The position numbers and the translations under genes are program-made. From Escherichia phage vB_EcoM_ESCO56, in sequence record OM386665.1: a stretch of DNA of 64,000 nucleotides, one strand, 5' to 3'. Below the pieces are notes generated by a model, which saw only the letters and a list, made by a program, of their open reading frames with translations, did no database searches and had not been told where the DNA came from. Below are positions 29,366-48,866 of the stretch, one piece after another. Position 1 is the stretch's first letter. Each line of letters opens with the position of its first letter.

Positions 29366-29891
29366 GATTTACCTTAGAAATGTTTGTTGCAAATTCACAT
29401 TGAGCGATGACTCTCATATTGTTATAGACATCTTGAGAATACTTCTTAGCTTTAGGGATTCTATACGAATAACCAGCATTGTATGATGCTAAAACTTTTT
29501 GTAAAGTCTTCTTTGACTTTGGCTGACCATGTACCTTTGTCCAAAACTCAAGCTCTTTGTGAGTTTCCTTCGCAGCATAGTTAAAGTCTTTTAAAAGTTT
29601 CTTTTTAGCCACATTAGGACTAATTTTGTTACGCTTTACAACAGTCTTCAAGTGATTCTGGAAAATACCATAATCGTGTGTCTTTTTATTCTCTACCTTC
29701 AGACCTAACTCTGACTCTTGTAAGGCTATAGCAGCTAGAGTGATACCCCAACCTTTACCCATGTTATTCTCACCATACTGGTAAGCTTTTAACATGTTTA
29801 CTTTTTGACTAATTGATAGCTCTGGGCAGTCAACTGCATAAGATAAGTGTGCTATAAACATTAAGCACAAACCTAGAATCAATTTCTTCAT
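29343..29891 (-). CDS. secreted SLT-domain lytic transglycosylase-like protein
   Basis: 182 aa; N-terminal signal peptide MKKLILGLCLMFIAHLSYA; ALQESELG ... DYGIFQ resembles SLT catalytic region. Confidence 0.55.
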   Translation of the reverse strand: MKKLILGLCLMFIAHLSYAVDCPELSISQKVNMLKAYQYGENNMGKGWGITLAAIALQESELGLKVENKKTHDYGIFQNHLKTVVKRNKISPNVAKKKLLKDFNYAAKETHKELEFWTKVHGQPKSKKTLQKVLASYNAGYSYRIPKAKKYSQDVYNNMRVIAQCEFATNISKVNHEKIKKV

Positions 29892-33251: not shown

Positions 33252-35618
33252 TTAATCGTAAAGTGTAGTTCCTTCTGGAACACACTTCACGTCAAAGCCT
33301 AAGAGCTTACTCACTTCAATAGGTGACACTTTATTCCAATCTAAATGGGAAAGCAAGAAGTTTTCTTGTTTTCTTTTTGAAAGGTAGTCTGTCACCTTAA
33401 TAACCATACGGTCACCAGCTTTCCTGATTTTCTTGTAAAGCTTTGTGTTATTGTCAAGACACCCTTTCAGAGTTTGCAAGACACTAGTGGTGTAAGTGTA
33501 TGCAAATGGTGCAGCAACATACTGGATTTTACCGAAAATTGCCTCTACAGCATCCTCATTACCTTCTAGGAAGATAGTTTTGTTAGTATCTCGTGAATAG
33601 CAATAACCACGAGAAATCTTCCTGTTATTGAATGTAAAGTTTCTGGCAATAATCCAACTGCTTGTAAGGTCAAGAACACCATTCATGTAGATGCGTGTCA
33701 TATACCTGTTATGATTAATCCAATGAACATCAGTTAAGCTGTCGTTCAAGAGCTTCTCCTCTACTTCAATCCAGTCTTCTGGTATCTTTTTCCAATTTGC
33801 TTTTCGGAAAACATAGACTGTCTTCCCTATAACATTAGCAACTGACTTAGCTACATCTTCTGGAGATGAGCAAAAACATTCACCATCAACTGTGTCACCG
33901 ACTGCCTTAATGTAAAGCTGAGGTTCTTCAATTGTGCCTAAGTCTTCTGACACCTCTTTGTAGGAGGCTACACCTTCTGCCGGAACTGCTTTCCAGAGTT
34001 TTACAACACTCCTGACAGCTTCTTTACGCTGGTAATGGTGCTCCTTATCAGACATTTTCACAATCTTTAACAAACTTTTATCAAGTTTGTGTAGATTGAT
34101 TAAATCATCTAACTCTTTTTCAGTCGAGAATACAAACACAATACCACTGTATCTGTGAAACAGTCTTGACTCGTTGGCGTAGTCTCGACATGCACCACGC
34201 AAGATTTGATTGCGTCCTACAGTCTTCTCAGTACCGTTTTTATTGCGACGGTCATTAATAACAAACAAAAACTGTTCAACTTGGCTTTTACGCATTGCAC
34301 CAAAGATATTGAACATACTTGCCTCTTGAGTGTAGGAAAGTGCTGTTGCACGAATCTTACTCTCTAAAGAGTTAAACTTAACATAAGCAACTGGGTTATA
34401 AAGATAATCTACTTTAGGGATGTTGTTTCCGTTCTTATCAACCTTAAAATTACCTTTGCCGTCACGTTCATAGATGACTGAGCCGTCTTCTGCGTAGATA
34501 ATTCCACGACGAATGTTTAACAATTCTTCTTCCAGAGAGTCAAGCTTAACACCTCCCCACTCTAGCTTTGGACACACAGCACTAAACATTTCTCGTGAGT
34601 TCAAACGTAACTCTGCATAAGCCTGTGCAGCATCCATGAGTGTAGGTTGGTTATTAACTCCCTTAATAACGTCCCTTGTAATTGCTTCAGTTATCTTTTT
34701 GGTAGCCTCGATAATGACATTTTTTGTCGTATCATTCATCTGCAATGCTTCACGAGAAGCTGCAATAGCAACTGCACCAATAGGCATGTAGATGTTTACA
34801 AGGTCTACACTTCTACGGAAAAACTCTGGCAAGATTTTGAAGAAATCATCGCCAAGTAATGCTTCCATATTAACTGGATAGGCAATATTACCCATCACCA
34901 CATTAAACCCTGTTCTGTTAATACTAGAACGCCAGCTTTGCTTATGAATCATGGCATCATAAACACCTTCTTCACGGGCAATGACGTTCATATCTGCTAA
35001 CACGTCATCATATACAATATTACTTTCTGGTTTTACAGCAAAGTATGAGTATACGTGACCAGCCTCTTCAAAGAACTTTGAAATACGATGGTCAGCAACA
35101 GCCACACGTACAGCTAAGCCGTTAGGTTCATTTGTTTGGTTAGTAGTAAGCTTAGTTACTTGAGGGATATCATTCTCAAGGTAAACAGAGTATTTATTAA
35201 CAACACCATCAACATAGCTAGACACTGTGAATGACTGAGCAATCGCAAACGGTGACTTTGAGCCGATACCCATTGCACCAATGTAGTCATTAGAATCATT
35301 CTTCGTAGAAGCCCCATAGTTCAGATACAAATTCATTACTTTGTCATGGGTTAAACCAGTTCCAAAGTCACGGACTTCAAAGTAAGGCTCAAATCGAGTA
35401 GGTAAATGCACATGGAATGGGATGTTCTCTTTTCCAGCTTCTTTCTGAGCATCTACTGCATTACATGACAGTTCACGAATCACTGCTCTTTCTTTAAAGG
35501 TATATACATCAGAACTCAGGAGGCTGAACATCTCAGGTGTCATTATAATCTGTGCTTGAGATGTCTCCAAAGAAGTTGAACTCTTAATCACTTCTGCGTG
35601 GTCGTTTACCATGCGCAT
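33252..35618 (-). CDS. rIIA: rIIA-like protein with N-terminal GHKL (histidine-kinase-like) ATPase domain
   Basis: 788 aa; N box ELSCNAVDA, G1 box DFGTG, G2 box GAMGIGSKS. Confidence 0.7.
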   Translation of the reverse strand: MRMVNDHAEVIKSSTSLETSQAQIIMTPEMFSLLSSDVYTFKERAVIRELSCNAVDAQKEAGKENIPFHVHLPTRFEPYFEVRDFGTGLTHDKVMNLYLNYGASTKNDSNDYIGAMGIGSKSPFAIAQSFTVSSYVDGVVNKYSVYLENDIPQVTKLTTNQTNEPNGLAVRVAVADHRISKFFEEAGHVYSYFAVKPESNIVYDDVLADMNVIAREEGVYDAMIHKQSWRSSINRTGFNVVMGNIAYPVNMEALLGDDFFKILPEFFRRSVDLVNIYMPIGAVAIAASREALQMNDTTKNVIIEATKKITEAITRDVIKGVNNQPTLMDAAQAYAELRLNSREMFSAVCPKLEWGGVKLDSLEEELLNIRRGIIYAEDGSVIYERDGKGNFKVDKNGNNIPKVDYLYNPVAYVKFNSLESKIRATALSYTQEASMFNIFGAMRKSQVEQFLFVINDRRNKNGTEKTVGRNQILRGACRDYANESRLFHRYSGIVFVFSTEKELDDLINLHKLDKSLLKIVKMSDKEHHYQRKEAVRSVVKLWKAVPAEGVASYKEVSEDLGTIEEPQLYIKAVGDTVDGECFCSSPEDVAKSVANVIGKTVYVFRKANWKKIPEDWIEVEEKLLNDSLTDVHWINHNRYMTRIYMNGVLDLTSSWIIARNFTFNNRKISRGYCYSRDTNKTIFLEGNEDAVEAIFGKIQYVAAPFAYTYTTSVLQTLKGCLDNNTKLYKKIRKAGDRMVIKVTDYLSKRKQENFLLSHLDWNKVSPIEVSKLLGFDVKCVPEGTTLYD

Positions 35619-35646
35619 AATATTCCCCTCTTAGTTTACTGTTAAA

Positions 35647-35823
35647 TTACTTATTAAACATTTTACCAGAGCCGCCACACATAGGGCAACAACCTGCTCT
35701 TGTATAACCTTCTCCATTACAGTAATCACACTTCTTGTGCTCTGCATAGTAATTGCAAAGAAGGTAAACAAAGATTGCTATGCTACCAAGTGACAGTAAA
35801 ATTTCTATCCAATATACTTGCAT
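35647..35823 (-). CDS. small membrane-anchored protein with DnaJ-type zinc finger repeats (CxxCxGxG x2)
   Basis: 58 aa, not in ORF track: MQVYWIEILLSLGSIAIFVYLLCNYYAEHKKCDYCNGEGYTRAGCCPMCGGSGKMFNK. Confidence 0.5.
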   Translation of the reverse strand: MQVYWIEILLSLGSIAIFVYLLCNYYAEHKKCDYCNGEGYTRAGCCPMCGGSGKMFNK

Positions 35824-36140
35824 GACTCACCTCTCATATTTTTGTAAAGGGTAAAGCTTCTGTCATGGACGATACTTGTAGATACTGAAAAGTTACTTTC
35901 AAGCATCTGTTTGTTTGGATTGTAGAAGCTTTCTTTAAACTCATCAAGAGCAAATTGGTGATTGTCTGGGAGACCTTTTACACAAACCTTTATTGTGATT
36001 ACTGCTGCAATCTTGTCAGTCAGTTCTTCTTTAGCTGCTACTAAAAACTTGTTAAGAAACTTTTTACCATCTTCAGGCTTCTTAATGTTTTCCCAACGTT
36101 CTTCTAGGACAACGCTAATGTTCATTTCTTTGATTCTCAT
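35805..36140 (-). CDS. hypothetical protein
   Basis: 111 aa ORF. Confidence 0.5.
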   Translation of the reverse strand: MRIKEMNISVVLEERWENIKKPEDGKKFLNKFLVAAKEELTDKIAAVITIKVCVKGLPDNHQFALDEFKESFYNPNKQMLESNFSVSTSIVHDRSFTLYKNMRGESCKYIG

Positions 36141-36157
36141 AGTCTTCTCCAGAAATT

Positions 36158-36178
36158 AAAAAGGCTCCCATAGGAGCC
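36158..36178 (-). terminator. intrinsic terminator
   Basis: Minus strand GGCTCC-TATG-GGAGCC followed by TTTTT. Confidence 0.7.
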
Positions 36179-36198
36179 TCTTATCATATACTTTTAAA

Positions 36199-36366
36199 GC
36201 TGCTTGTCAATATTGTTTCGAATATCGCCAAGAGTTGTGTAACCGAACTGCTTAGAGTCACTAAAGACTAAACGTAAAGCACAAGCTGGGTGGTCAAGTA
36301 CATCTGCAAAACTCTGGAATCCATAGCCATCTACAGCTTTCAGCTTATCACCATCCCACATAGGTG
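36199..36366 (-). CDS. hypothetical small protein (55 aa)
   Basis: Below ORF-track length cutoff: MWDGDKLKAVDGYGFQSFADVLDHPACALRLVFSDSKQFGYTTLGDIRNNIDKQL. Confidence 0.35.
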
Positions 36367-36405
36367 TACGCCACCAAAGGCAGATTTCTTAACACCACTA
36401 TCTGT

Positions 36406-36726
36406 TTACTGAGCCACTTTCAAGATGCTTGTGAATGAAATCTCACTCTCATCCATAAACTCTTTTGCTTCTCCAGTAACTTTTACAAAGTTATCTAGGC
36501 AGATAATCTTCTTATCTTTCTTGCTATAGGTTAGCTTAACCTTTTCAATATCTTTCTTAGAGCTTTCCTCTTCATTAAAGAGCTTTACAGCTTCTTTGAA
36601 TGGGAGGTATGAGCCATCATCGTCGCTAATAAAACCTGTACCACAATAGTAGAAGTTATATTCTTTAGCCATAAACTGGCACAGTACGAAAATCTGTAAT
36701 TTGCGAGTGTTATAAACTTTGCTCAT
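36406..36726 (-). CDS. hypothetical protein
   Basis: 106 aa ORF. Confidence 0.5.
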   Translation of the reverse strand: MSKVYNTRKLQIFVLCQFMAKEYNFYYCGTGFISDDDGSYLPFKEAVKLFNEEESSKKDIEKVKLTYSKKDKKIICLDNFVKVTGEAKEFMDESEISFTSILKVAQ

Positions 36727-36728
36727 GA

Positions 36729-36986
36729 TTATTTAGCCTTCTTATTACGTTTATGGTTACGAGCTTTCTTAGCTGCTCGTTTAATAGCTGCTGCACCAGA
36801 CGGACGGTGGGCTTGTTTCTTACCACCTTTATCACGGCCTACATAGGTACTTTTCATAAACTCATTAGCCAGCTTCTCCTCCATCTTAAAGTTCTGCATA
36901 AGATGAGTCACATCAACGCCAGTGAGCATACCTAATGAAGCTAGTGCTGCTTTTACTTTTGATTTAAAGCTATTCCAGATTCCCAT
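36729..36986 (-). CDS. hypothetical basic protein
   Basis: 85 aa; Lys/Arg-rich C-terminus. Confidence 0.5.
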   Translation of the reverse strand: MGIWNSFKSKVKAALASLGMLTGVDVTHLMQNFKMEEKLANEFMKSTYVGRDKGGKKQAHRPSGAAAIKRAAKKARNHKRNKKAK

Positions 36987-37109
36987 TTCATATCTCTCTC
37001 AATCTTTTCACAAATGTTTTAAGTTCTCCTTCAGTGACACCAATGGTTAAGTTTGTTCTGTAGAACATTGTAAAGTGGTCTTTACCGATAACCTACTTTA
37101 CAATGAGAT

Positions 37110-37595
37110 TTACTCTGCTCTCCACTGACAATCACCTTGCCACCCATACTCTTTTCTCCAGAGAATTTGGTTATCAGAACCACGATATGGTTTAGTTGTT
37201 GGTTTAGATAAATCATACTTGCCATCAATCACCACGTCAATGTATTTCATCACATCAAGGTGAATTTTTTCGTGTAGTTGAAAACCTGTCCAAAGCCATA
37301 TAGACTTCTCTGGATAAATAGTTTTAATACGTTTACATATATTGGTAACCTCTTGAATATTTCTATCATCCAGAGGTTCTCCACCAAGTATTGACAAACC
37401 ACTGACAGCATTATCACCCATTAGCTGGATGATTCCATAGAGGTTTGCATAAGTAAACTCTTTACCAGCATTAAACTTCCAAGACTCCCTGTTAAAGCAG
37501 CCTTCGCAGTGATGCTTACAACCAGCTACGAAGAGGCTTACACGAACCCCTTCACCATTAGCTGTATCAAATGGTCTAATATCCATGTAATTCAT
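37110..37595 (-). CDS. nrdG: anaerobic ribonucleotide reductase activating protein (radical SAM)
   Basis: 161 aa; CKHHCEGC radical-SAM cysteine cluster; adjacent to nrdD. Confidence 0.85.
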   Translation of the reverse strand: MNYMDIRPFDTANGEGVRVSLFVAGCKHHCEGCFNRESWKFNAGKEFTYANLYGIIQLMGDNAVSGLSILGGEPLDDRNIQEVTNICKRIKTIYPEKSIWLWTGFQLHEKIHLDVMKYIDVVIDGKYDLSKPTTKPYRGSDNQILWRKEYGWQGDCQWRAE

Positions 37596-37659
37596 ATAGT
37601 TACCTCACCAATAAAAAGGTGATGTAAGCCTATCAAAACCCACACCACCTTGTCAAGTT

Positions 37660-38607
37660 TTACATAGAAACCCTATCCTTAATTTCTGCCATCTTAGCGT
37701 CATTCATTCGAGACTGACCTTTAATTTTTGTGAATGACAAGTACCCGCACACCCTGTTAATCACAGAGATATCGTGTGAATGACAAACCTCACATTCTTC
37801 AACATCAGCCTTTGGTCTGTTACCACAATGTTCACAGATTGCTAAGTCAAAGTTAAGTCCCTGATAGAAACCTTTCAACATCCCCCTTGTAATACAACTT
37901 TTAAGTGCTGATAAGTTTTCTGGATTAGCTACCCTTACATACTGGATTCTGCCGCCTCTACAGATATGGAAGAAGGGTTCTTCTAAGTCCTGCTTCTCAA
38001 ATGGTGTAATGTCTGCTGCAACATTCATATGGAAACTGTTTGTAAAGTATTCCTTGTCAGAAACACCTTTGATAACACCAAACATATCTCTGAACTGTTT
38101 TAGCTGAGTCCCACAAAGTGATTCTGCTGGAGTGCCATAGACTGCATATAAGAAGCCATCTTCATTTTTAAACTCTTCAGTTTTCATGTTGATGTATGCC
38201 AGAACATCATATGCAAAACTACAGCTTCCAACTTCATGGAGTCGTTTACCCTCAGCAAGAACAGACAACTCATCAAGAGCAGTAACCCCAAAAGAGGCTG
38301 TGAAAGACTTCACGATATCCCAACCAACCTTATCAGTAGGCTTCTTAGTCCCTTTGTACAGACCACCTTGCGTAAATGCAAGAGGGTTAGAACTTGCTGG
38401 CATATTAGCAATCATTTCGTAACGTTTCTTGTGGAAGCTGCGAATCATCTCTAGGTGCTTATCAAGCTCTTTCCAGAAATCTAAACCATTCTCTTTGGTG
38501 TACTGGTAAATCATTGGTAAGTTCAAAGATACAGCACCAATGTTAGCACGACCTACATAAAACTCTTCACCATGTTCGGTGTGGTATGGTGATAAAAATG
38601 CTCTACA
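37660..38607 (-). CDS. nrdD: anaerobic ribonucleotide reductase NrdD, exon 2
   Basis: C-terminal part with glycyl-radical motif RVCGYL and Cys cluster CEHCG...CEVC; reading frame extends upstream of the track start to the proposed 3' splice site. Confidence 0.75.
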   Translation of the reverse strand, partial: CRAFLSPYHTEHGEEFYVGRANIGAVSLNLPMIYQYTKENGLDFWKELDKHLEMIRSFHKKRYEMIANMPASSNPLAFTQGGLYKGTKKPTDKVGWDIVKSFTASFGVTALDELSVLAEGKRLHEVGSCSFAYDVLAYINMKTEEFKNEDGFLYAVYGTPAESLCGTQLKQFRDMFGVIKGVSDKEYFTNSFHMNVAADITPFEKQDLEEPFFHICRGGRIQYVRVANPENLSALKSCITRGMLKGFYQGLNFDLAICEHCGNRPKADVEECEVCHSHDISVINRVCGYLSFTKIKGQSRMNDAKMAEIKDRVSM

Positions 38608-38923
38608 CTTGTTGTTCAGGTAAGTTCGCTAAGCTTACCCCGCTTTATTCAAGCTGCTTACTGTCGCCAGTAAGTCCAGACTATATCTTCTACTTATTTC
38701 TAAGTAGCGTACCATTTCGAGTCGCTTGACCCTACACCGCTACATTCATCACGGTTAGTCGTTCGGCATTTAGATGTACTCAAACTCATATTCGAAGTTA
38801 TTCGGTATGTAAGACTCCTACGTTGTATATTTTCTTACATCGTACATCATTTAGCACAGGATTGTCTACATCTGTAGAGTTTCCCTGTTTAGGCACGTTT
38901 TAGATGAGCTATAGAGCTTGTTA
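38608..38923 (-). ncRNA. group I self-splicing intron in nrdD (ORF-less)
   Basis: Separates two nrdD halves in different frames; contains P-like AACAGGGAAACTC, Q-like AATCCTGTGC, R-like GAACGACTAA and S-like AAGATATAGTC (R/S form GACUA/UAGUC P7); U before 5' splice site, G before proposed 3' splice site. Splice sites approximate. Confidence 0.7.
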
Positions 38924-40120
38924 ACCCATCGGTGAAATAACCTTACCAGAACGCTCAAAAGCCTCTGCTACAGCACCATGACCAGATACACTTAAGAAAT
39001 CTGGATACATTGCTTTAGAGCAACACTCAATGGCTTTACTGTACAGGTGTCCTTGACAGATATCCTCATCGTGTCTCTTCTGGTCATAAATATAAACCAG
39101 TTTAGGGAATACAACAGGCTTCTTGCTCTTACCTTGTCCATTCATACGAACATCTAGGAGAGTGCTCGCAATCATGTATTGCAGTCGGTTATCTTCATTA
39201 GACATATCTGAGTCAAGTAACCCGAATGTCAAAGTTGTGAATGCAAAATCCCCACGGCTACAAGGTACAGTATTTAGTTTCATTTCAAGTGACTGGAAAC
39301 CTTGAGTCAGTTCAATCTGTAGCTGCTCCATGACATAATTGTGGTAATGTTCTTTAGGAATACCATAAGATGCTGCTTTCTCAGCATGATAGCGTAGAGA
39401 CTTCTTAGCATACGGCACAAGTACCTTATCAATCTCTGCTAAAGTAAAACCACCAAATTGCTGTGCAGTTGCTGAAAGAACTACGTCACCAATAACCTGT
39501 AAGGCCGACAGTACAGACTTCGGTTCACAATATTCAATGCCAGACATTTCAAAGCCACCTTTCAGGACTTTACCAATGTCAAACAGACAACAGTTGATAC
39601 CACCAAAAATTAGGTCTCTTAAATCATGGATATAGATAAACCCTTTTTCAATGGCTTCAAGTTCCTCTGGTGTTAAATGGTACTGTTTAAAGATTTCTTT
39701 AGTCAGATAACCACGAATAATTGAGCCTTTTGTAGAAATTAAACTGCTGTCAAAGTTAGCATTCTCTCTGTCACCTAAGAAGAGTGTATCTTTGGTCTTC
39801 TGGTAAAGTTCATCCCAATTTTGAGCAACTTCTTTACGGTAATTTCTATATGTTGAGTAAGACTCATAAATCTCGTGGTTGACTTCTGCCAAAGCACCCT
39901 CAACAATACTGTGAATATCATTTACTGAAATGAGTAAATTATTCTGCTTAGTGGATTTTACCAGAACCCTCATAAATGCTGACTCAAGAGCTTGGGTAAC
40001 ATCTGGTGGAAGCTCTTTATAACCAACTCTGTTAGCTGACTTTGTGACTGCTGTTAAAACTTTTTTGATATCAGGTTCTTCGAGTGAGCCATTCTTTTTA
40101 ATAATCTGTACTTTGTTCAT
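38924..40120 (-). CDS. nrdD: anaerobic ribonucleotide reductase NrdD, exon 1
   Basis: 399 aa N-terminal part beginning with ATP-cone-like MNKVQIIKKNGSLEEPDIKKV; spliced product predicted about 714 aa. Confidence 0.8.
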
Positions 40121-40139
40121 TATTGCCCCTTTACATTCT

Positions 40140-40160
40140 AAAAAGGTCTCCGAAGAGACC
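40140..40160 (-). terminator. intrinsic terminator
   Basis: Minus strand GGTCTC-TTCG-GAGACC followed by TTTTT. Confidence 0.7.
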
Positions 40161-40168
40161 CTTTCATT

Positions 40169-40375
40169 TTAAATCTTTTTAGAAAACTTCGCAAAGAGTT
40201 CTCTTAGTTTTTCAGTGATACCTAACTGTATCTCTAATATTTCAAAGATAACCCATAGTAACATGGCTCCAAACAACGAACCTTGTTCAAAGTCAGTAAA
40301 TAGGTTAACAATAAGCATACCAATCACAATAGCTGGTGCATCAACAACCAAACCTTCCCAAATGCGTTTAAGCAT
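40169..40375 (-). CDS. hypothetical small membrane protein
   Basis: 68 aa; hydrophobic segment PAIVIGMLIVNLF. Confidence 0.45.
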   Translation of the reverse strand: MLKRIWEGLVVDAPAIVIGMLIVNLFTDFEQGSLFGAMLLWVIFEILEIQLGITEKLRELFAKFSKKI

Positions 40376-40610
40376 TATTCACCTCTGCCATAAAATTCTG
40401 TAGCGTCCCAACAGGTTTTAGGTTTTGTCCATCAGTTTTCATGATGAATGGCATCTGACGAACTGGCATCTGTGCAATATCCATTAGTTCTGATAGCTCA
40501 TAATCCTGCCCTAGCATTCTCACAACATGGTCAATACCACGAGCTTTTGCAAAATTCTTTGCAGTCTCACACTGAGGGCATCCAGTTTTGGAGTAAATTA
40601 CATAAGTCAT
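40368..40610 (-). CDS. glutaredoxin-like protein (CPQC active site)
   Basis: 80 aa; YSKTGCPQCETAK near N-terminus; sits between nrdD and nrdB. Confidence 0.7.
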   Translation of the reverse strand: MTYVIYSKTGCPQCETAKNFAKARGIDHVVRMLGQDYELSELMDIAQMPVRQMPFIMKTDGQNLKPVGTLQNFMAEVNNA

Positions 40611-47499: not shown

Positions 47500-48354
47500 T
47501 TAGTCTTCTGTATCGAAGTCTTCATCTTCTTCGTCATCTGGGTCTGGCAAATCTTCTTCATCATCATCAGAATCATTCGAAGGTTTGTGGTCTGTTGCGT
47601 CTTCTTCAGTGACTTCACCGTTATCTTCAACACCATCAAGACCAAGCATAGCCAGTTCATCTTCATCCAGTTCAGGTTCACCATTAGCACCGTTACCGCC
47701 AGCGTAAGGTACAAGAGTATCAATGATAAACTGTTCCTGAATAGGTTTTGTCAGAACATTGTTCTCAAAAGTGTAGAAGTGAGTAGAAAGAATCACACTA
47801 CCGAAAGAACCGTTACCAACTGCAATGTCTGGATGAATTACATCATAGTTCTTGTCATCTTCATGTTTATCAGATGCTTGAGCTTTGATTTTCTTCATCG
47901 GCTGTTTAACAGCTACACGCTTACCATTTACTTCTTCAATCAGCATTACAGGGAATGACTGTTTAGCTGTCCATACAGCACCATCTTTATAAGCTGCTGC
48001 ACGACTTACTTTCAAGATGTGGTAAGTGTCTGCTTCAAAAGGTGGTTTACAACCAAACTTCTCTTCGAAGTCATCTGCATCAACTGCTTCAGTAGTGACT
48101 TTATCCCAACCTTCTGGGTTCTTCTTAGACTTAGTAAACTCTTTAAATAGTTTGTTACCGTCTTCTGCCAGAATTGATACGCTGTAGTTGCAGTCTTTGC
48201 CTGGGAATTTCTTATCAATAGACTTACCTTTCCCCGGACGTGGTGAAGTGTTCAGGTAATAAAACCAGACGTCTTTCAGCAGGTAACGCAGAGTTTGACG
48301 TTCAGTGCCATTGTACTTCTCTACCGGAGCTTTCATTTTAACAACTTTAGACAT
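47500..48354 (-). CDS. single-stranded DNA-binding protein-like (acidic C-terminal tail)
   Basis: 284 aa; C-terminus DSDDDEEDLPDPDDEEDEDFDTED ending near an aromatic residue, reminiscent of T7 gp2.5-type SSB tails. Confidence 0.5.
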   Translation of the reverse strand: MSKVVKMKAPVEKYNGTERQTLRYLLKDVWFYYLNTSPRPGKGKSIDKKFPGKDCNYSVSILAEDGNKLFKEFTKSKKNPEGWDKVTTEAVDADDFEEKFGCKPPFEADTYHILKVSRAAAYKDGAVWTAKQSFPVMLIEEVNGKRVAVKQPMKKIKAQASDKHEDDKNYDVIHPDIAVGNGSFGSVILSTHFYTFENNVLTKPIQEQFIIDTLVPYAGGNGANGEPELDEDELAMLGLDGVEDNGEVTEEDATDHKPSNDSDDDEEDLPDPDDEEDEDFDTED

Positions 48355-48426
48355 AATTTAAACCTCTATCTCAATTTATGAAGAGTACCAATTCTAATTT
48401 GTTGATACTCTATTGTCAAATACTAA

Positions 48427-48576
48427 TTACTTGGAGTTGTGATTCTCTTTAGAAGCTGCTTTACGTGCAGTTTTTCCAGTTCTTACACGTTTTTCTTCAT
48501 AGTATTTTGCTGGTTTTCCAGCAGTGGATTTTAAGGAGTCCCCAAAAACTTTTTCAAATGCTTTAGAGTGTTTCAT
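48427..48576 (-). CDS. hypothetical small basic protein (49 aa)
   Basis: Not in ORF track: MKHSKAFEKVFGDSLKSTAGKPAKYYEEKRVRTGKTARKAASKENHNSK; GGAGA RBS 6 nt upstream; ATGA overlap with upstream ORF stop. Confidence 0.5.
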   Translation of the reverse strand: MKHSKAFEKVFGDSLKSTAGKPAKYYEEKRVRTGKTARKAASKENHNSK

Positions 48577-48866
48577 GATATTCTCCGATATACTTGGTAT
48601 TCAAACACGTTTTCTTTCATTATAAACAGCCAACTAATATTATGCTGAGGTAGCGTAATGACGACTGTAATCATGCTCTGGTGGAAATCTTCTTTTACCT
48701 CAACTTCCCCATCGCATTTCATGAGGAGCATTCTATAGAACCTATCAAGCTTTGTCAAACACTCTTCCTGAAATTTATTTAAACTTTTTTCTTCAAAGAA
48801 GGGTGTGAACCCCTCTCTTTTATAACTATCACTCAGTTTCGAATGGGCAGTCATCTGCATCCTCAC
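48573..48866 (-). CDS. hypothetical protein (start uncertain)
   Basis: 97 aa track ORF overlapping the 3' end of the primase-helicase gene; stop overlaps the start of the small basic gene. Confidence 0.35.
   Translation of the reverse strand: MRMQMTAHSKLSDSYKREGFTPFFEEKSLNKFQEECLTKLDRFYRMLLMKCDGEVEVKEDFHQSMITVVITLPQHNISWLFIMKENVFEYQVYRRIS

Follow-up and report, generated by a model that had tools for sequence, protein, structure and literature searches.

A conserved small gene upstream of rIIA in Escherichia phage vB_EcoM_ESCO56, predicted to encode a membrane-anchored zinc-knuckle miniprotein, and two further small open reading frames

Introduction

Do three small open reading frames (ORFs) of Escherichia phage vB_EcoM_ESCO56 encode proteins, and does the one directly upstream of rIIA serve the rII proteins as a chaperone? 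The phage is a Felixounavirus, Felix O1-like, and the window analysed here is a stretch of 64,000 nucleotides of its genome (OM386665.1). An initial annotation, made from the sequence alone, had proposed three plausible genes that were missing from the ORF track, here called ORF A, ORF B and ORF C, and had singled out the first as a membrane-anchored protein with a DnaJ-type zinc finger that might bind proteins in a chaperone-like manner next to the membrane-associated rII proteins. All three are absent from the track because the default cut-off of the ORF lister is 60 aa, and in that respect "missing" was correct; in GenBank, however, the ESCO56 record does list ORFs B and C (UPW39795.1 and UPW39813.1). 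As to their being genes, ORFs A and C are conserved (dN/dS 0.08 and 0.11–0.15, respectively), whereas ORF B is a remnant of nadV. The features discussed below are collected in Table 1.

Table 1. Features of the ESCO56 window discussed in the text (positions within the window).
Feature	Position	Strand	Description
rIIA	33252..35618	minus	28 nt downstream of ORF A; annotated rIIA in relatives
ORF A	35647..35823	minus	58 aa, PHROG 3931; predicted single-pass membrane helix and one predicted Cys4 zinc knuckle
ORF A, predicted zinc-knuckle segment	35662..35730	minus	residues 32-54, C32-x2-C35-x-G-x-G ... C46-x2-C49-x-G-x-G-K54
ORF A, hydrophobic core of the predicted transmembrane helix	35755..35811	minus	residues 5-23, Kyte-Doolittle mean 2.14 over 19 residues
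111-aa gene	35805..36140	minus	PHROG 4262, function not assigned; overlaps ORF A by 19 nt
Shine-Dalgarno of ORF A	35827..35835	minus	GAGAGGTGA; inside the 3' end of the 111-aa gene
Sigma-70-like promoter and terminator-like hairpin	36159..36210	minus	TTGACA-16-TATGAT, from a consensus scan; hairpin directly after
nadV remnant	36194..36407	minus	NadV residues 524-593 of 593, frameshift near 36367; ORF B (36194..36361) inside
Deletion junction	36399..36407	minus	9-bp microhomology AAACAGATA, at both ends of a 3.3-kb segment of Bas63 (overlapping blastn segments)
ORF C	48427..48576	minus	49-aa basic miniprotein, PHROG 4424; equals bas63_0054
GGAGA ribosome-binding site of ORF C	48582..48586	minus	ORF C ATG (48576-48574) overlaps the TGA of an upstream 97-aa ORF

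Results

ORF A lies exactly where the initial annotation had placed it and looks as described there, with 58 aa, an N-terminal helix, two CxxCxGxG repeats and a position just upstream of rIIA. Its translation (MQVYWIEILLSLGSIAIFVYLLCNYYAEHKKCDYCNGEGYTRAGCCPMCGGSGKMFNK, 58 aa) matched PHROG 3931 over its full length (E 2.4e-32; residues 1-58 aligned to positions 1-59 of the 59-position profile), and tblastn recovered a homologue in 306 phage records, those of the Felixounaviruses being full-length and 84-93% identical. The reading frame is under constraint: dN/dS was 0.084 for the whole gene and 0.043 for its knuckle half, while the two alternative frames gave 0.98-1.83, and variable sites at codon positions 1, 2 and 3 numbered 8, 7 and 30. 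Conservation in related phages, which the initial annotation had named as a check, therefore speaks for the gene, which is kept across genera. A word-index protein search with a single query returned 3 proteins only, and exhaustive HMMER and profile searching placed the family in Ounavirinae and Krischvirus-type phages only; the remaining matches were set aside as unrelated proteins with a pair of CxxCxGxG motifs, among them true DnaJ, large proteins with many repeats and further phage proteins. Frameshifted alleles of ORF A occur in several records. Elsewhere the family goes by names such as "hypothetical membrane protein" (Felix O1, NP_945023.1) and "membrane protein" (Bas63, bas63_0083, hereafter gene 83); no function has been assigned to it, and none of the family annotations seen mentions a zinc knuckle. 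On sequence grounds ORF A is a genuine protein-coding gene, conserved across genera. It carries no annotation in the ESCO56 GenBank record, which thus misses one conserved gene, whereas many relatives do annotate it.

The surroundings of ORF A carry recognizable expression signals. In Citrobacter phage Mijalis a ribosome-binding site is annotated at the same place as the Shine-Dalgarno sequence of ORF A, and the overlap between the 111-aa gene and ORF A, also 19 nt, recurs in Felixouna-, Moogle- and Suspvirus. The 111-aa gene itself is restricted to Ounavirinae (257 records); for its product we considered a fold like the C-terminal domain of IF3 and rejected it, since the similarity was not significant (AF2 pLDDT 66; Foldseek E 0.03, TM ~0.47). 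The promoter-like site and the terminator-like hairpin are conserved in three genera, with the -35 element of the promoter falling within the last codons of nadV, and this promoter is likely the start of a putative transcription unit comprising the 111-aa gene, ORF A and rIIA. An Rfam search of positions 35000-40500 returned the nrdD intron only and nothing at the three ORFs, and in the literature we found no Felixounavirus transcriptome. T4 rIIA.1, tried as a positional analogue of ORF A, proved to be an unrelated soluble protein that contains neither Cys nor a hydrophobic helix.

The transmembrane helix proposed for ORF A was borne out by prediction. Besides the hydrophobic 19-mer of ESCO56 (Table 1), every family member has one (Kyte-Doolittle 2.0-2.6), and an AF2 model places a helix at residues 3-28 (pLDDT 72-82); E7 and S11 are invariant within the helix in the family alignment. 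The model was computed from a 6-sequence alignment, and its knuckle (pLDDT 50-59) was of low confidence and not used as evidence for a fold; a Foldseek comparison of the model with viral structures gave no match. A reading of the helix as a signal-anchor-release or antiholin domain was rejected on composition (4/19 small residues, not Gly/Ala-rich). Since no Lys or Arg precedes the helix in any member and at least one follows it in all, the N-terminus is most likely outside and the C-terminus cytoplasmic. The Lys/Arg residues after the helix are strongest in the Krischvirus (PLKKCKHC) and Felixounavirus members; the Moogle- and Suspvirus homologues have a net acidic C-terminal flank, so that the positive-inside argument is weak for those members.

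The cysteine motif, overall C-x2-C-x-G-x-G-x6-C-x2-C-x-G-x-G, consists of CDYCNGEG and CPMCGGSG, and CxxCxGxG occurs nowhere else in the six frames of the window. Across 12 sequences, down to 41% identity, C32, C35, G37, G44, C46, C49, G51, G53 and K54 are invariant. A fifth cysteine, C45, stands beside C46 in nearly all members; P0032 has Pro there, so the conserved core of the family is four Cys. The loop between the two CxxC pairs differs among genera, and a conserved binding surface is therefore not evident. ORF A ends 4-7 residues past the knuckle and is without a C-terminal helix.

How far does the likeness to DnaJ go? The family profile found the Cys-rich domain of E. coli DnaJ (1EXK) as its best PDB match (E 4.4e-6), with 2CTT at E 2e-3, so the resemblance to a DnaJ zinc finger that had been noticed initially is real. 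The Pfam families DnaJ_CXXCXGXG and DUF5351 gave weak matches in 12/12 family members; against PF00684, ORF A scored 15.3 bits where the cut-off is 32.7, all 12 members being sub-threshold with a best E of 0.0047, and all Pfam matches of the family lie below the curated cut-offs. Type I DnaJ/Hsp40 proteins (1EXK, 2CTT; PF00684) share the CxxCxGxG consensus, but their four motifs build two zinc centres, and they carry a J domain as well as substrate-binding domains at the C-terminus, whereas ORF A has only two motifs. ORF A also lacks a J domain with its HPD motif: there was no J-domain Pfam match, and its N-terminal half is the membrane helix. Because only half of a DnaJ zinc domain is present and the J domain is absent, ORF A is by these comparisons DnaJ-like and not a DnaJ; its sequence, which could form only one of DnaJ's two zinc centres, does not imply the term "chaperone-like".

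Two other proteins offer parallels in design. Anti-TRAP of Bacillus (AT, RtpA; 3LCZ/3LD0; PF15777) is likewise a miniprotein with one site made of two CxxCxGxG motifs and the same Cx2C-x10-Cx2C spacing; in its 53 residues the two motifs bind zinc, and it is the zinc that oligomerisation and function depend on (PMC2896485). C32-x2-C35-x10-C46-x2-C49 of ORF A aligns column for column with residues 10-34 of 3LCZ, at a marginal profile E of 0.095, and the PF15777 profile matched 4/12 family members at E 0.49 or worse, which does not make them members of that family. Anti-TRAP acts by binding and blocking another protein, not as a chaperone; it is soluble and oligomerises (trimers) via a C-terminal helix, whereas the helix of ORF A is N-terminal and predicted to lie in the membrane. 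The plant thylakoid protein FIP (At5g02160) has an anchor and a C4 zinc finger, lacks a J domain and binds the membrane protease FtsH5 (PMC5915565). As in ORF A, the anchor comes first and the two CxxCxGxG repeats follow on the stromal, cytoplasm-equivalent side, the orientation shared with ORF A being a predicted one; FIP differs in being eukaryotic and organellar and in having a transit peptide, and the likeness, compared by published description, is one of design. A DnaJ-like zinc finger anchored in the membrane and encoded by a phage did not turn up in our literature search. With ORF A, the phage miniproteins, whose number is growing, would gain a compact member with a membrane anchor and one predicted zinc knuckle.

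ORF B exists and is 55 aa long, but it occupies 36194-36361 and not 36199-36366, a difference of 5 nt from the initial annotation, and it did not hold up as a plausible gene. Comparison with nadV of Bas63 (bas63_0080; blastn/tblastn) identified it as the terminal 55 codons of a nadV gene 594 codons long, equal to NadV residues 539-593 at ~96% identity, and the 13 NadV codons that precede it are still present, out of frame. PHROG 15800 matched the remnant at the very end of the profile (positions 271-322 of 322, E 1.6e-15). A 3.3-kb deletion has taken the homologues of bas63_0077 and bas63_0078, prs and most of nadV; with it more than 90% of the NadV enzyme is gone in ESCO56, the catalytic domain (NAPRTase, ~590 aa) included, and what remains does not qualify as a NadV. 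This deletion, which ran between the 9-bp repeats, together with the frameshift left ORF B behind. Could the fragment nevertheless function as a small gene, the C-terminal end of NadV having been domesticated as a peptide? Its frame is open for 55 codons from an ATG start, and it is annotated as a CDS in four phages: ESCO56 (under one of the two accessions given above), ESCO45, FG1m and FM4b. Against this, it equals the NadV tail with its preceding codons kept out of frame, its upstream boundary is the deletion junction with the microhomology, it is present only in the few phages that share the deletion (of 215 records, 3 reach a query coverage of 80% or more), and in PHROG it has no independent family, matching only the ends of NadV profiles. 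Its retention is explained by the promoter and the terminator embedded at and after its 3' end: the nadV tail has probably been kept for its -35 element and terminator, which downstream genes use. We give a functional ORF B next to no chance of being right, and by its sequence ORF B is a non-functional remnant, not a gene.

For ORF C the initial description was accurate in its position, its length, its Lys-rich composition (11 Lys and 3 Arg in 49 aa), the GGAGA ribosome-binding site and the ATGA coupling. Its residues 1-47 aligned with positions 1-47 of the 49-position PHROG 4424 profile (E 2.5e-32), which makes ORF C a member of that family; dN/dS was 0.15 among members of the genus and 0.11 between genera, with variation at third positions, and CGGAG together with ATGA is kept in 28 related loci. 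It is already annotated in relatives, as it is in ESCO56. Pfam gave no match for ORF C or for the 97-aa and 284-aa proteins, and ORF C had no match when searched by sequence against the PDB. The fitness values of its Bas63 counterpart, gene 54, on S17 were +0.51/+0.79/+1.32. ORF C is a real, conserved basic miniprotein gene, to judge by these signals translationally coupled, in a replication-gene block.

Discussion

The account that joins these results, and that we consider quite probable, is that ORF A encodes a membrane zinc-knuckle accessory factor, that ORF B is a nadV remnant and that ORF C is a real, coupled miniprotein. ORF A would be a single-pass inner-membrane miniprotein with its helix at about residues 4-26, whose 30-residue C-terminal tail is predicted to fold as one tetra-cysteine zinc knuckle, kept only a few residues from the cytoplasmic surface of the membrane. 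It would be made probably early, from the sigma-70-type promoter, by translational coupling to the upstream 111-aa gene and probably by co-transcription with rIIA. There it may bind a membrane-proximal protein via the knuckle, the polar helix face formed by E7 and S11, or both, as anti-TRAP binds TRAP and plant FIP binds FtsH5, and it would act as an accessory, condition-specific factor, being neither a J-protein chaperone nor required for rII function.

The position of ORF A invites the different proposal that it is a membrane-anchored DnaJ-type chaperone for the folding, membrane association or function of RIIA and RIIB. The DnaJ-like motif is real, as the profile match shows, and ORF A precedes rIIA closely, is probably co-transcribed with it and stands in the same order in all Ounavirinae examined; these genomes are collinear, however, so that the repeated adjacency counts as a single observation. 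In Krischvirus the homologue (Phi1 ORF046, 29502-29660) adjoins nrdH and lies ~27 kb from rIIA (1-2109), and T4, like other rII-bearing phages, has rIIA and rIIB and no homologue of ORF A. ORF A, moreover, lacks a J domain and could form a single zinc centre. Published genetic data from Bas63 point the same way: on QatABCD cells, PhageMaP knock-outs of gene 83 were fit (+0.77/+0.66/+0.81) whereas those of rIIA (-1.26/-1.30/-1.61) and rIIB (-1.05/-2.46/-2.45) were strongly depleted. The link to the rII proteins drawn in the initial annotation is thus not supported, and we regard a chaperone role there as very unlikely. Fitness of the gene 83 knock-outs was at least about zero on S17, in a second laboratory-host sheet and in three defence-file sheets; in these five PhageMaP sheets of about sixteen, gene 83 is dispensable in Bas63 under the conditions screened. 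With frameshifted alleles in nature and knock-outs free of cost in the conditions tested, the benefit of ORF A is thus unobserved.

Two further readings concern the side of the membrane and the chemistry of the cysteines. The helix might be a signal anchor of the opposite topology with a periplasmic, disulfide-bonded tail, acting in superinfection exclusion or lysis timing. Small envelope proteins of T-even phages with periplasmic domains do exist, for example T4 RI; ORF A also neighbours membrane- and lysis-related genes (rIIA and rIIB, with the Bas63 spanins a few genes further), and the stretch following the helix carries a net negative charge in the Moogle- and Suspvirus members. Yet the distribution of Lys and Arg around the helix speaks against this topology, CxxCxGxG pairs bind zinc in DnaJ and anti-TRAP, both of them cytoplasmic, and the helix lacks the Gly/Ala-rich composition of signal-anchor-release domains, which leaves a periplasmic tail improbable. 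Alternatively, the cysteine cluster might be redox-active, or might bind another cofactor, for instance an Fe-S cluster shared across a dimer with the help of the fifth Cys, with a role in ribonucleotide-reductase or glutaredoxin metabolism. C45 is indeed kept in nearly all members, in Krischvirus the homologue and the 3' end of nrdH overlap, and nrdD and nrdG lie 1.3-4 kb upstream in the window; but P0032 carries Pro at C45, leaving a core of four Cys, the glutaredoxin-like gene is ~10 kb off in Ounavirinae, and Pfam and profile searches gave no oxidoreductase similarity. We hold this reading to be most unlikely. Some membrane proteins of plants with DnaJ-like zinc fingers are reported to carry out thiol-disulfide chemistry.

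A more specific form of the accessory-factor account, by analogy, makes ORF A a membrane-tethered counterpart of anti-TRAP or FIP whose knuckle, at the inner membrane face, captures or inhibits a specific host inner-membrane protein, helped by recognition within the membrane through Glu7 and Ser11. Stated so narrowly it is speculative and rather unlikely to be right. If it were true, the gene would matter only on hosts that carry the target, and such a restricted role would explain its conservation in nature yet its dispensability in the laboratory; strict conservation set against laboratory dispensability makes ORF A a candidate host-specific or defence-specific factor. Example targets would be FtsH or a membrane component of a defence system.

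The ORF B fragment bears on how the phage is read in another way. The record labels this 55-aa piece nicotinamide phosphoribosyltransferase, which could mislead an inference of NAD salvage, while the fragment in fact marks the loss of prs, nadV and a GIY-YIG gene. In Bas63 these three are validated counters to the Sir2-HerA, Ec86, hhe and Ec67 defences, and from their loss we would expect ESCO56 to be sensitive to defence systems that deplete NAD.

Conservation and expression signals of ORF A

The gene order on the minus strand, which carries every gene treated here, is nrdD, nrdG, 85 aa, 106 aa (DUF7390), ORF B (55 aa), 111 aa, ORF A (58 aa), rIIA and a 368-aa gene that occupies the rIIB position. 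Across positions 35300-36800 the DNA shares 97.9% identity with Escherichia phage vB_EcoM_ESCO45 and 90-95% with over 200 Felix O1-like phages, and exact look-ups of three proteins (ORF B, ORF C and the 111-aa protein) assign the window to phage vB_EcoM_ESCO56 or a close neighbor of it. We also observed that nrdD contains a group I intron, which exceeded the gathering score of Rfam RF00028 with 53.5 bits and differs from the Bas63 nrdD intron in having no homing-endonuclease ORF.

Features of the window and their counterparts in phage Bas63
Feature	Position	Strand	Remark
ORF A	35647..35823	-	58 aa; PHROG 3931
111-aa gene	35805-36140	-	PHROG 4262; ESCO56_00085 (exact protein look-up)
bas63_0081 difference	36138-36142		Bas63 locus L054 11512-11856; exact ATG-to-ATG
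Sigma-70-like promoter TTGACA-16-TATGAT + hairpin	36159-36210	-	upstream of 111-aa gene
ORF B	36194..36361	-	55 aa; UPW39795.1 (exact protein look-up)
nadV end	36407-36138		last 215 nt of Bas63 nadV + downstream spacer, 97.8%
Other side of junction	36842-36399		matches Bas63 region ending just past bas63_0076
Deletion comparison	36399-36842		Bas63 locus L054 7462-11511; 3.3-kb block lost
Group I intron in nrdD	38657-38981	-	between ORFs 38921..40120 and 37660..38526
284-aa gene	47500..48354		acidic C-terminal tail
Promoter TTGACA-17-TAGAAT	48391-48419	-	near consensus; directly after ORF C
ORF C	48427..48576	-	49 aa; PHROG 4424; UPW39813.1 (exact protein look-up)

ORF A was found exactly where the initial annotation had placed it. 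Its N-terminal half is hydrophobic, and its two CxxCxGxG motifs are the only ones in a six-frame translation of the whole window. It matched PHROG 3931 over its full length (E 2.4e-32), and tblastn confirmed conservation of the frame in related phages (306 records), with identities of 84-95% in Felixounavirus, 45-54% in Mooglevirus and Suspvirus, and about 44% over 50 residues in Krischvirus (RB49, Phi1, JSE). Relatives, e.g., Bas63 bas63_0083 and the Tribble homologue, whose annotation cites Felix O1 NP_945023.1, are labeled "(putative) membrane protein"; ORF A is without annotation in ESCO45 and, since no entry of the protein collection is identical to it, in the present phage too. In a comparison of 20 distinct alleles from Felixounavirus, variable sites were distributed 8/7/30 by codon position and pooled dN/dS was 0.084 (helix half: 0.20; half with the C-terminal Cys4 segment, hereafter the knuckle: 0.043); the other two frames gave 0.98 and 1.83 in the same allele set, and the Moogle/Susp group gave 0.10 for ORF A. 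Judged from its sequence, ORF A is a genuine gene that has been conserved. No family members were found beyond Ounavirinae and Krischvirus-type phages by exhaustive HMMER (1.84 billion representatives) or profile search (5.8 billion clusters). At least five records or contigs carry frameshifts at differing positions (P0003, P0007, P0036, P0040, P0041; from phiWec177, NJ12, a 109-kb NCBI contig and two metagenome contigs), all entering one common out-of-frame 63-aa tail. These may be true loss-of-function alleles or sequencing errors, and their presence in a few records fits a gene that is dispensable in culture.

The ORF A ATG is preceded, at a distance of 3 nt, by a strong Shine-Dalgarno sequence, GAGAGGTGA. 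This site is still part of the 111-aa gene, whose end shares 19 nt with ORF A, an overlap seen in three genera. The -35 element of the promoter upstream of the 111-aa gene falls in the last nadV codons and a terminator-like hairpin follows directly; both are kept in Felixouna-, Moogle- and Suspvirus, and the predicted transcription start is at or inside the 5' arm of the hairpin. This layout may block read-through from nadV and pass promoter-initiated transcripts, and we infer a putative early unit of 111 aa, ORF A and rIIA driven by host polymerase. The 111-aa gene is restricted to Ounavirinae and was absent from Krischvirus; its AF2 model has a beta-alpha-beta-alpha-alpha-beta-beta fold (pLDDT 66) that only weakly resembles the IF3 C-terminal domain (Foldseek E 0.03). 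Bas63 and Tribble have a further 345-bp gene, bas63_0081 (114 aa), that the present phage lacks; the difference extends exactly from one ATG to the next, so that the 111-aa gene takes over the leader and RBS of bas63_0081.

ORF A resembles single zinc knuckles on a predicted membrane anchor

Every ORF A family member contains a 19-residue stretch of mean hydropathy 2.0-2.6, with no Lys or Arg N-terminal of it and at least one within the 12 residues after it. In the AF2 model residues 3-28 form a single helix (pLDDT 72-82). Applying the well-established positive-inside rule, the knuckle most likely lies on the cytoplasmic side, 2-8 residues off the membrane. A 12-sequence alignment revealed invariant M1, E7, S11, C32, C35, G37, G44, C45, C46, C49, G51, G53 and K54; in one further member, P0032, Pro replaces C45, reducing the conserved core to four cysteines, C-x2-C-x10-C-x2-C.

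The family profile matched solved structures of the Cys-rich domain of DnaJ (1EXK, E 4.4e-6), the zinc finger of DNAJA3 (2CTT, E 2e-3) and anti-TRAP (3LCZ, E 0.095, with identical cysteine spacing in the alignment); Pfam DUF5351 and DnaJ_CXXCXGXG matched 12 of 12 members, all below curated cut-offs. The "DnaJ-type zinc finger" of the initial annotation therefore stands as a likeness of motif but not as DnaJ membership, since ORF A has no J domain and room for one zinc center only. Anti-TRAP is alike in size, with 53 residues and two CxxCxGxG motifs that bind zinc, on which its assembly and function depend (PMC2896485). ORF A, like ORF C, belongs to an already cataloged family without known function; what we add is a putative assignment at motif level, a membrane anchor that carries one zinc knuckle of the anti-TRAP/DnaJ type.

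Evidence opposes a link between ORF A and rII

A chaperone-like connection of ORF A with the rII proteins had been proposed, and the evidence that we add opposes it. Adjacency to rIIA recurs only among collinear genomes of one subfamily: the Krischvirus homologue, Phi1 ORF046 (29502-29660), overlaps the end of nrdH and is followed by gene 55.2, with rIIA at 1-2109. T4 has rIIA and rIIB, yet tblastn found no ORF A homologue there, and T4 rIIA.1, upstream of rIIA, is a soluble protein without Cys. In PhageMaP knock-out data for Bas63, rIIA (g84) and rIIB (g85) were reported as QatABCD counters, clean deletions costing 10^4-10^5 in plating efficiency; the QatABCD scores (g84: -1.26/-1.30/-1.61; g85: -1.05/-2.46/-2.45) are opposite to those of the ORF A homologue g83 (+0.77/+0.66/+0.81), which also scored about 0 or above on S17, a second laboratory-host sheet, TerY-P cells and one further defense sheet and goes unmentioned in the article text (bioRxiv 10.1101/2024.10.10.617714).

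By analogy, ORF A is most likely a membrane-tethered protein-binding knuckle and an accessory, condition-specific factor: held at the membrane, the knuckle would bind a protein partner and would be needed only under certain conditions. Anti-TRAP provides a precedent for a single zinc knuckle serving as protein inhibitor, and plant FIP for a membrane anchor joined to a zinc finger (stromal, with two CxxCxGxG repeats, no J domain and FtsH5 as partner; PMC5915565). Glu7 and Ser11, both invariant and separated by one turn of the helix, suggest a specific contact by the helix itself.

The two-motif CxxCxGxG module was also seen, in the form of a short insertion, within many larger and unrelated phage proteins (IMG/VR loci L039-L053; ~430-880 aa, without known function, one 483-aa protein starting with the motif) and in true phage-encoded DnaJ proteins. 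The pair looks like a mobile zinc-knuckle module.

ORF B is a remnant of a lost counter-defense block

ORF B does have the proposed 55 aa, but its coordinates were 5 nt off and it did not hold up as a plausible gene. Family matches were solely to C-terminal ends of nicotinamide phosphoribosyltransferase profiles. The two Bas63 alignments flanking the junction share 9 nt, and in Bas63 the junction sequence, AAACAGATA, occurs at each end of the 3.3-kb segment that is missing here. Lost are bas63_0077, bas63_0078, prs (bas63_0079) and, from its start, 1.57 kb of nadV; tblastn revealed NadV residues 524-536 and 537-593 in differing frames and no trace of other deleted genes in the window. ORF B thus runs from an internal NadV Met to the stop, and on this comparison is a gene remnant, i.e., deletion debris. 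It is common only to the few phages with the deletion (ESCO45, ESCO56, FG1m, FM4b), in which the leftover is labeled "nicotinamide phosphoribosyl transferase", a CDS now recognized as a fragment. That it persists is attributed to its 3' end, where the promoter and the terminator are located.

In Bas63, prs (g79) with nadV (g80) counters Sir2-HerA, Ec86 and hhe, and g77 GIY-YIG counters the Ec67 retron, as validated experimentally (bioRxiv 10.1101/2024.10.10.617714). The remnant therefore marks a lost counter-defense block, whose three validated genes are gone from the present phage lineage.

ORF C is a conserved basic protein

All proposed features of ORF C were recovered: 49 aa with 11 Lys and 3 Arg, a GGAGA site and an ATGA stop/start overlap. 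It matched PHROG 4424 (E 2.5e-32), is annotated in ESCO56 and in relatives (bas63_0054), and its conservation was confirmed in 262 phage records, including one Pectobacterium phage at 59.5% identity. dN/dS was 0.15 within Felixounavirus and 0.11 across genera (first 34 codons), and the CGGAG site and ATGA overlap were preserved in 28 of 28 loci examined. By these sequence measures ORF C is a real gene. Pfam and PDB searches gave no similarity. The Bas63 homologue g54 is dispensable on S17 (PhageMaP fitness +0.51/+0.79/+1.32; bioRxiv 10.1101/2024.10.10.617714). ORF C lies between a primase/helicase and the 284-aa acidic-tailed protein, and its basic composition and place hint, as a guess, at binding to nucleic acid or the replisome. 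The near-consensus promoter after ORF C precedes the 284-aa gene.
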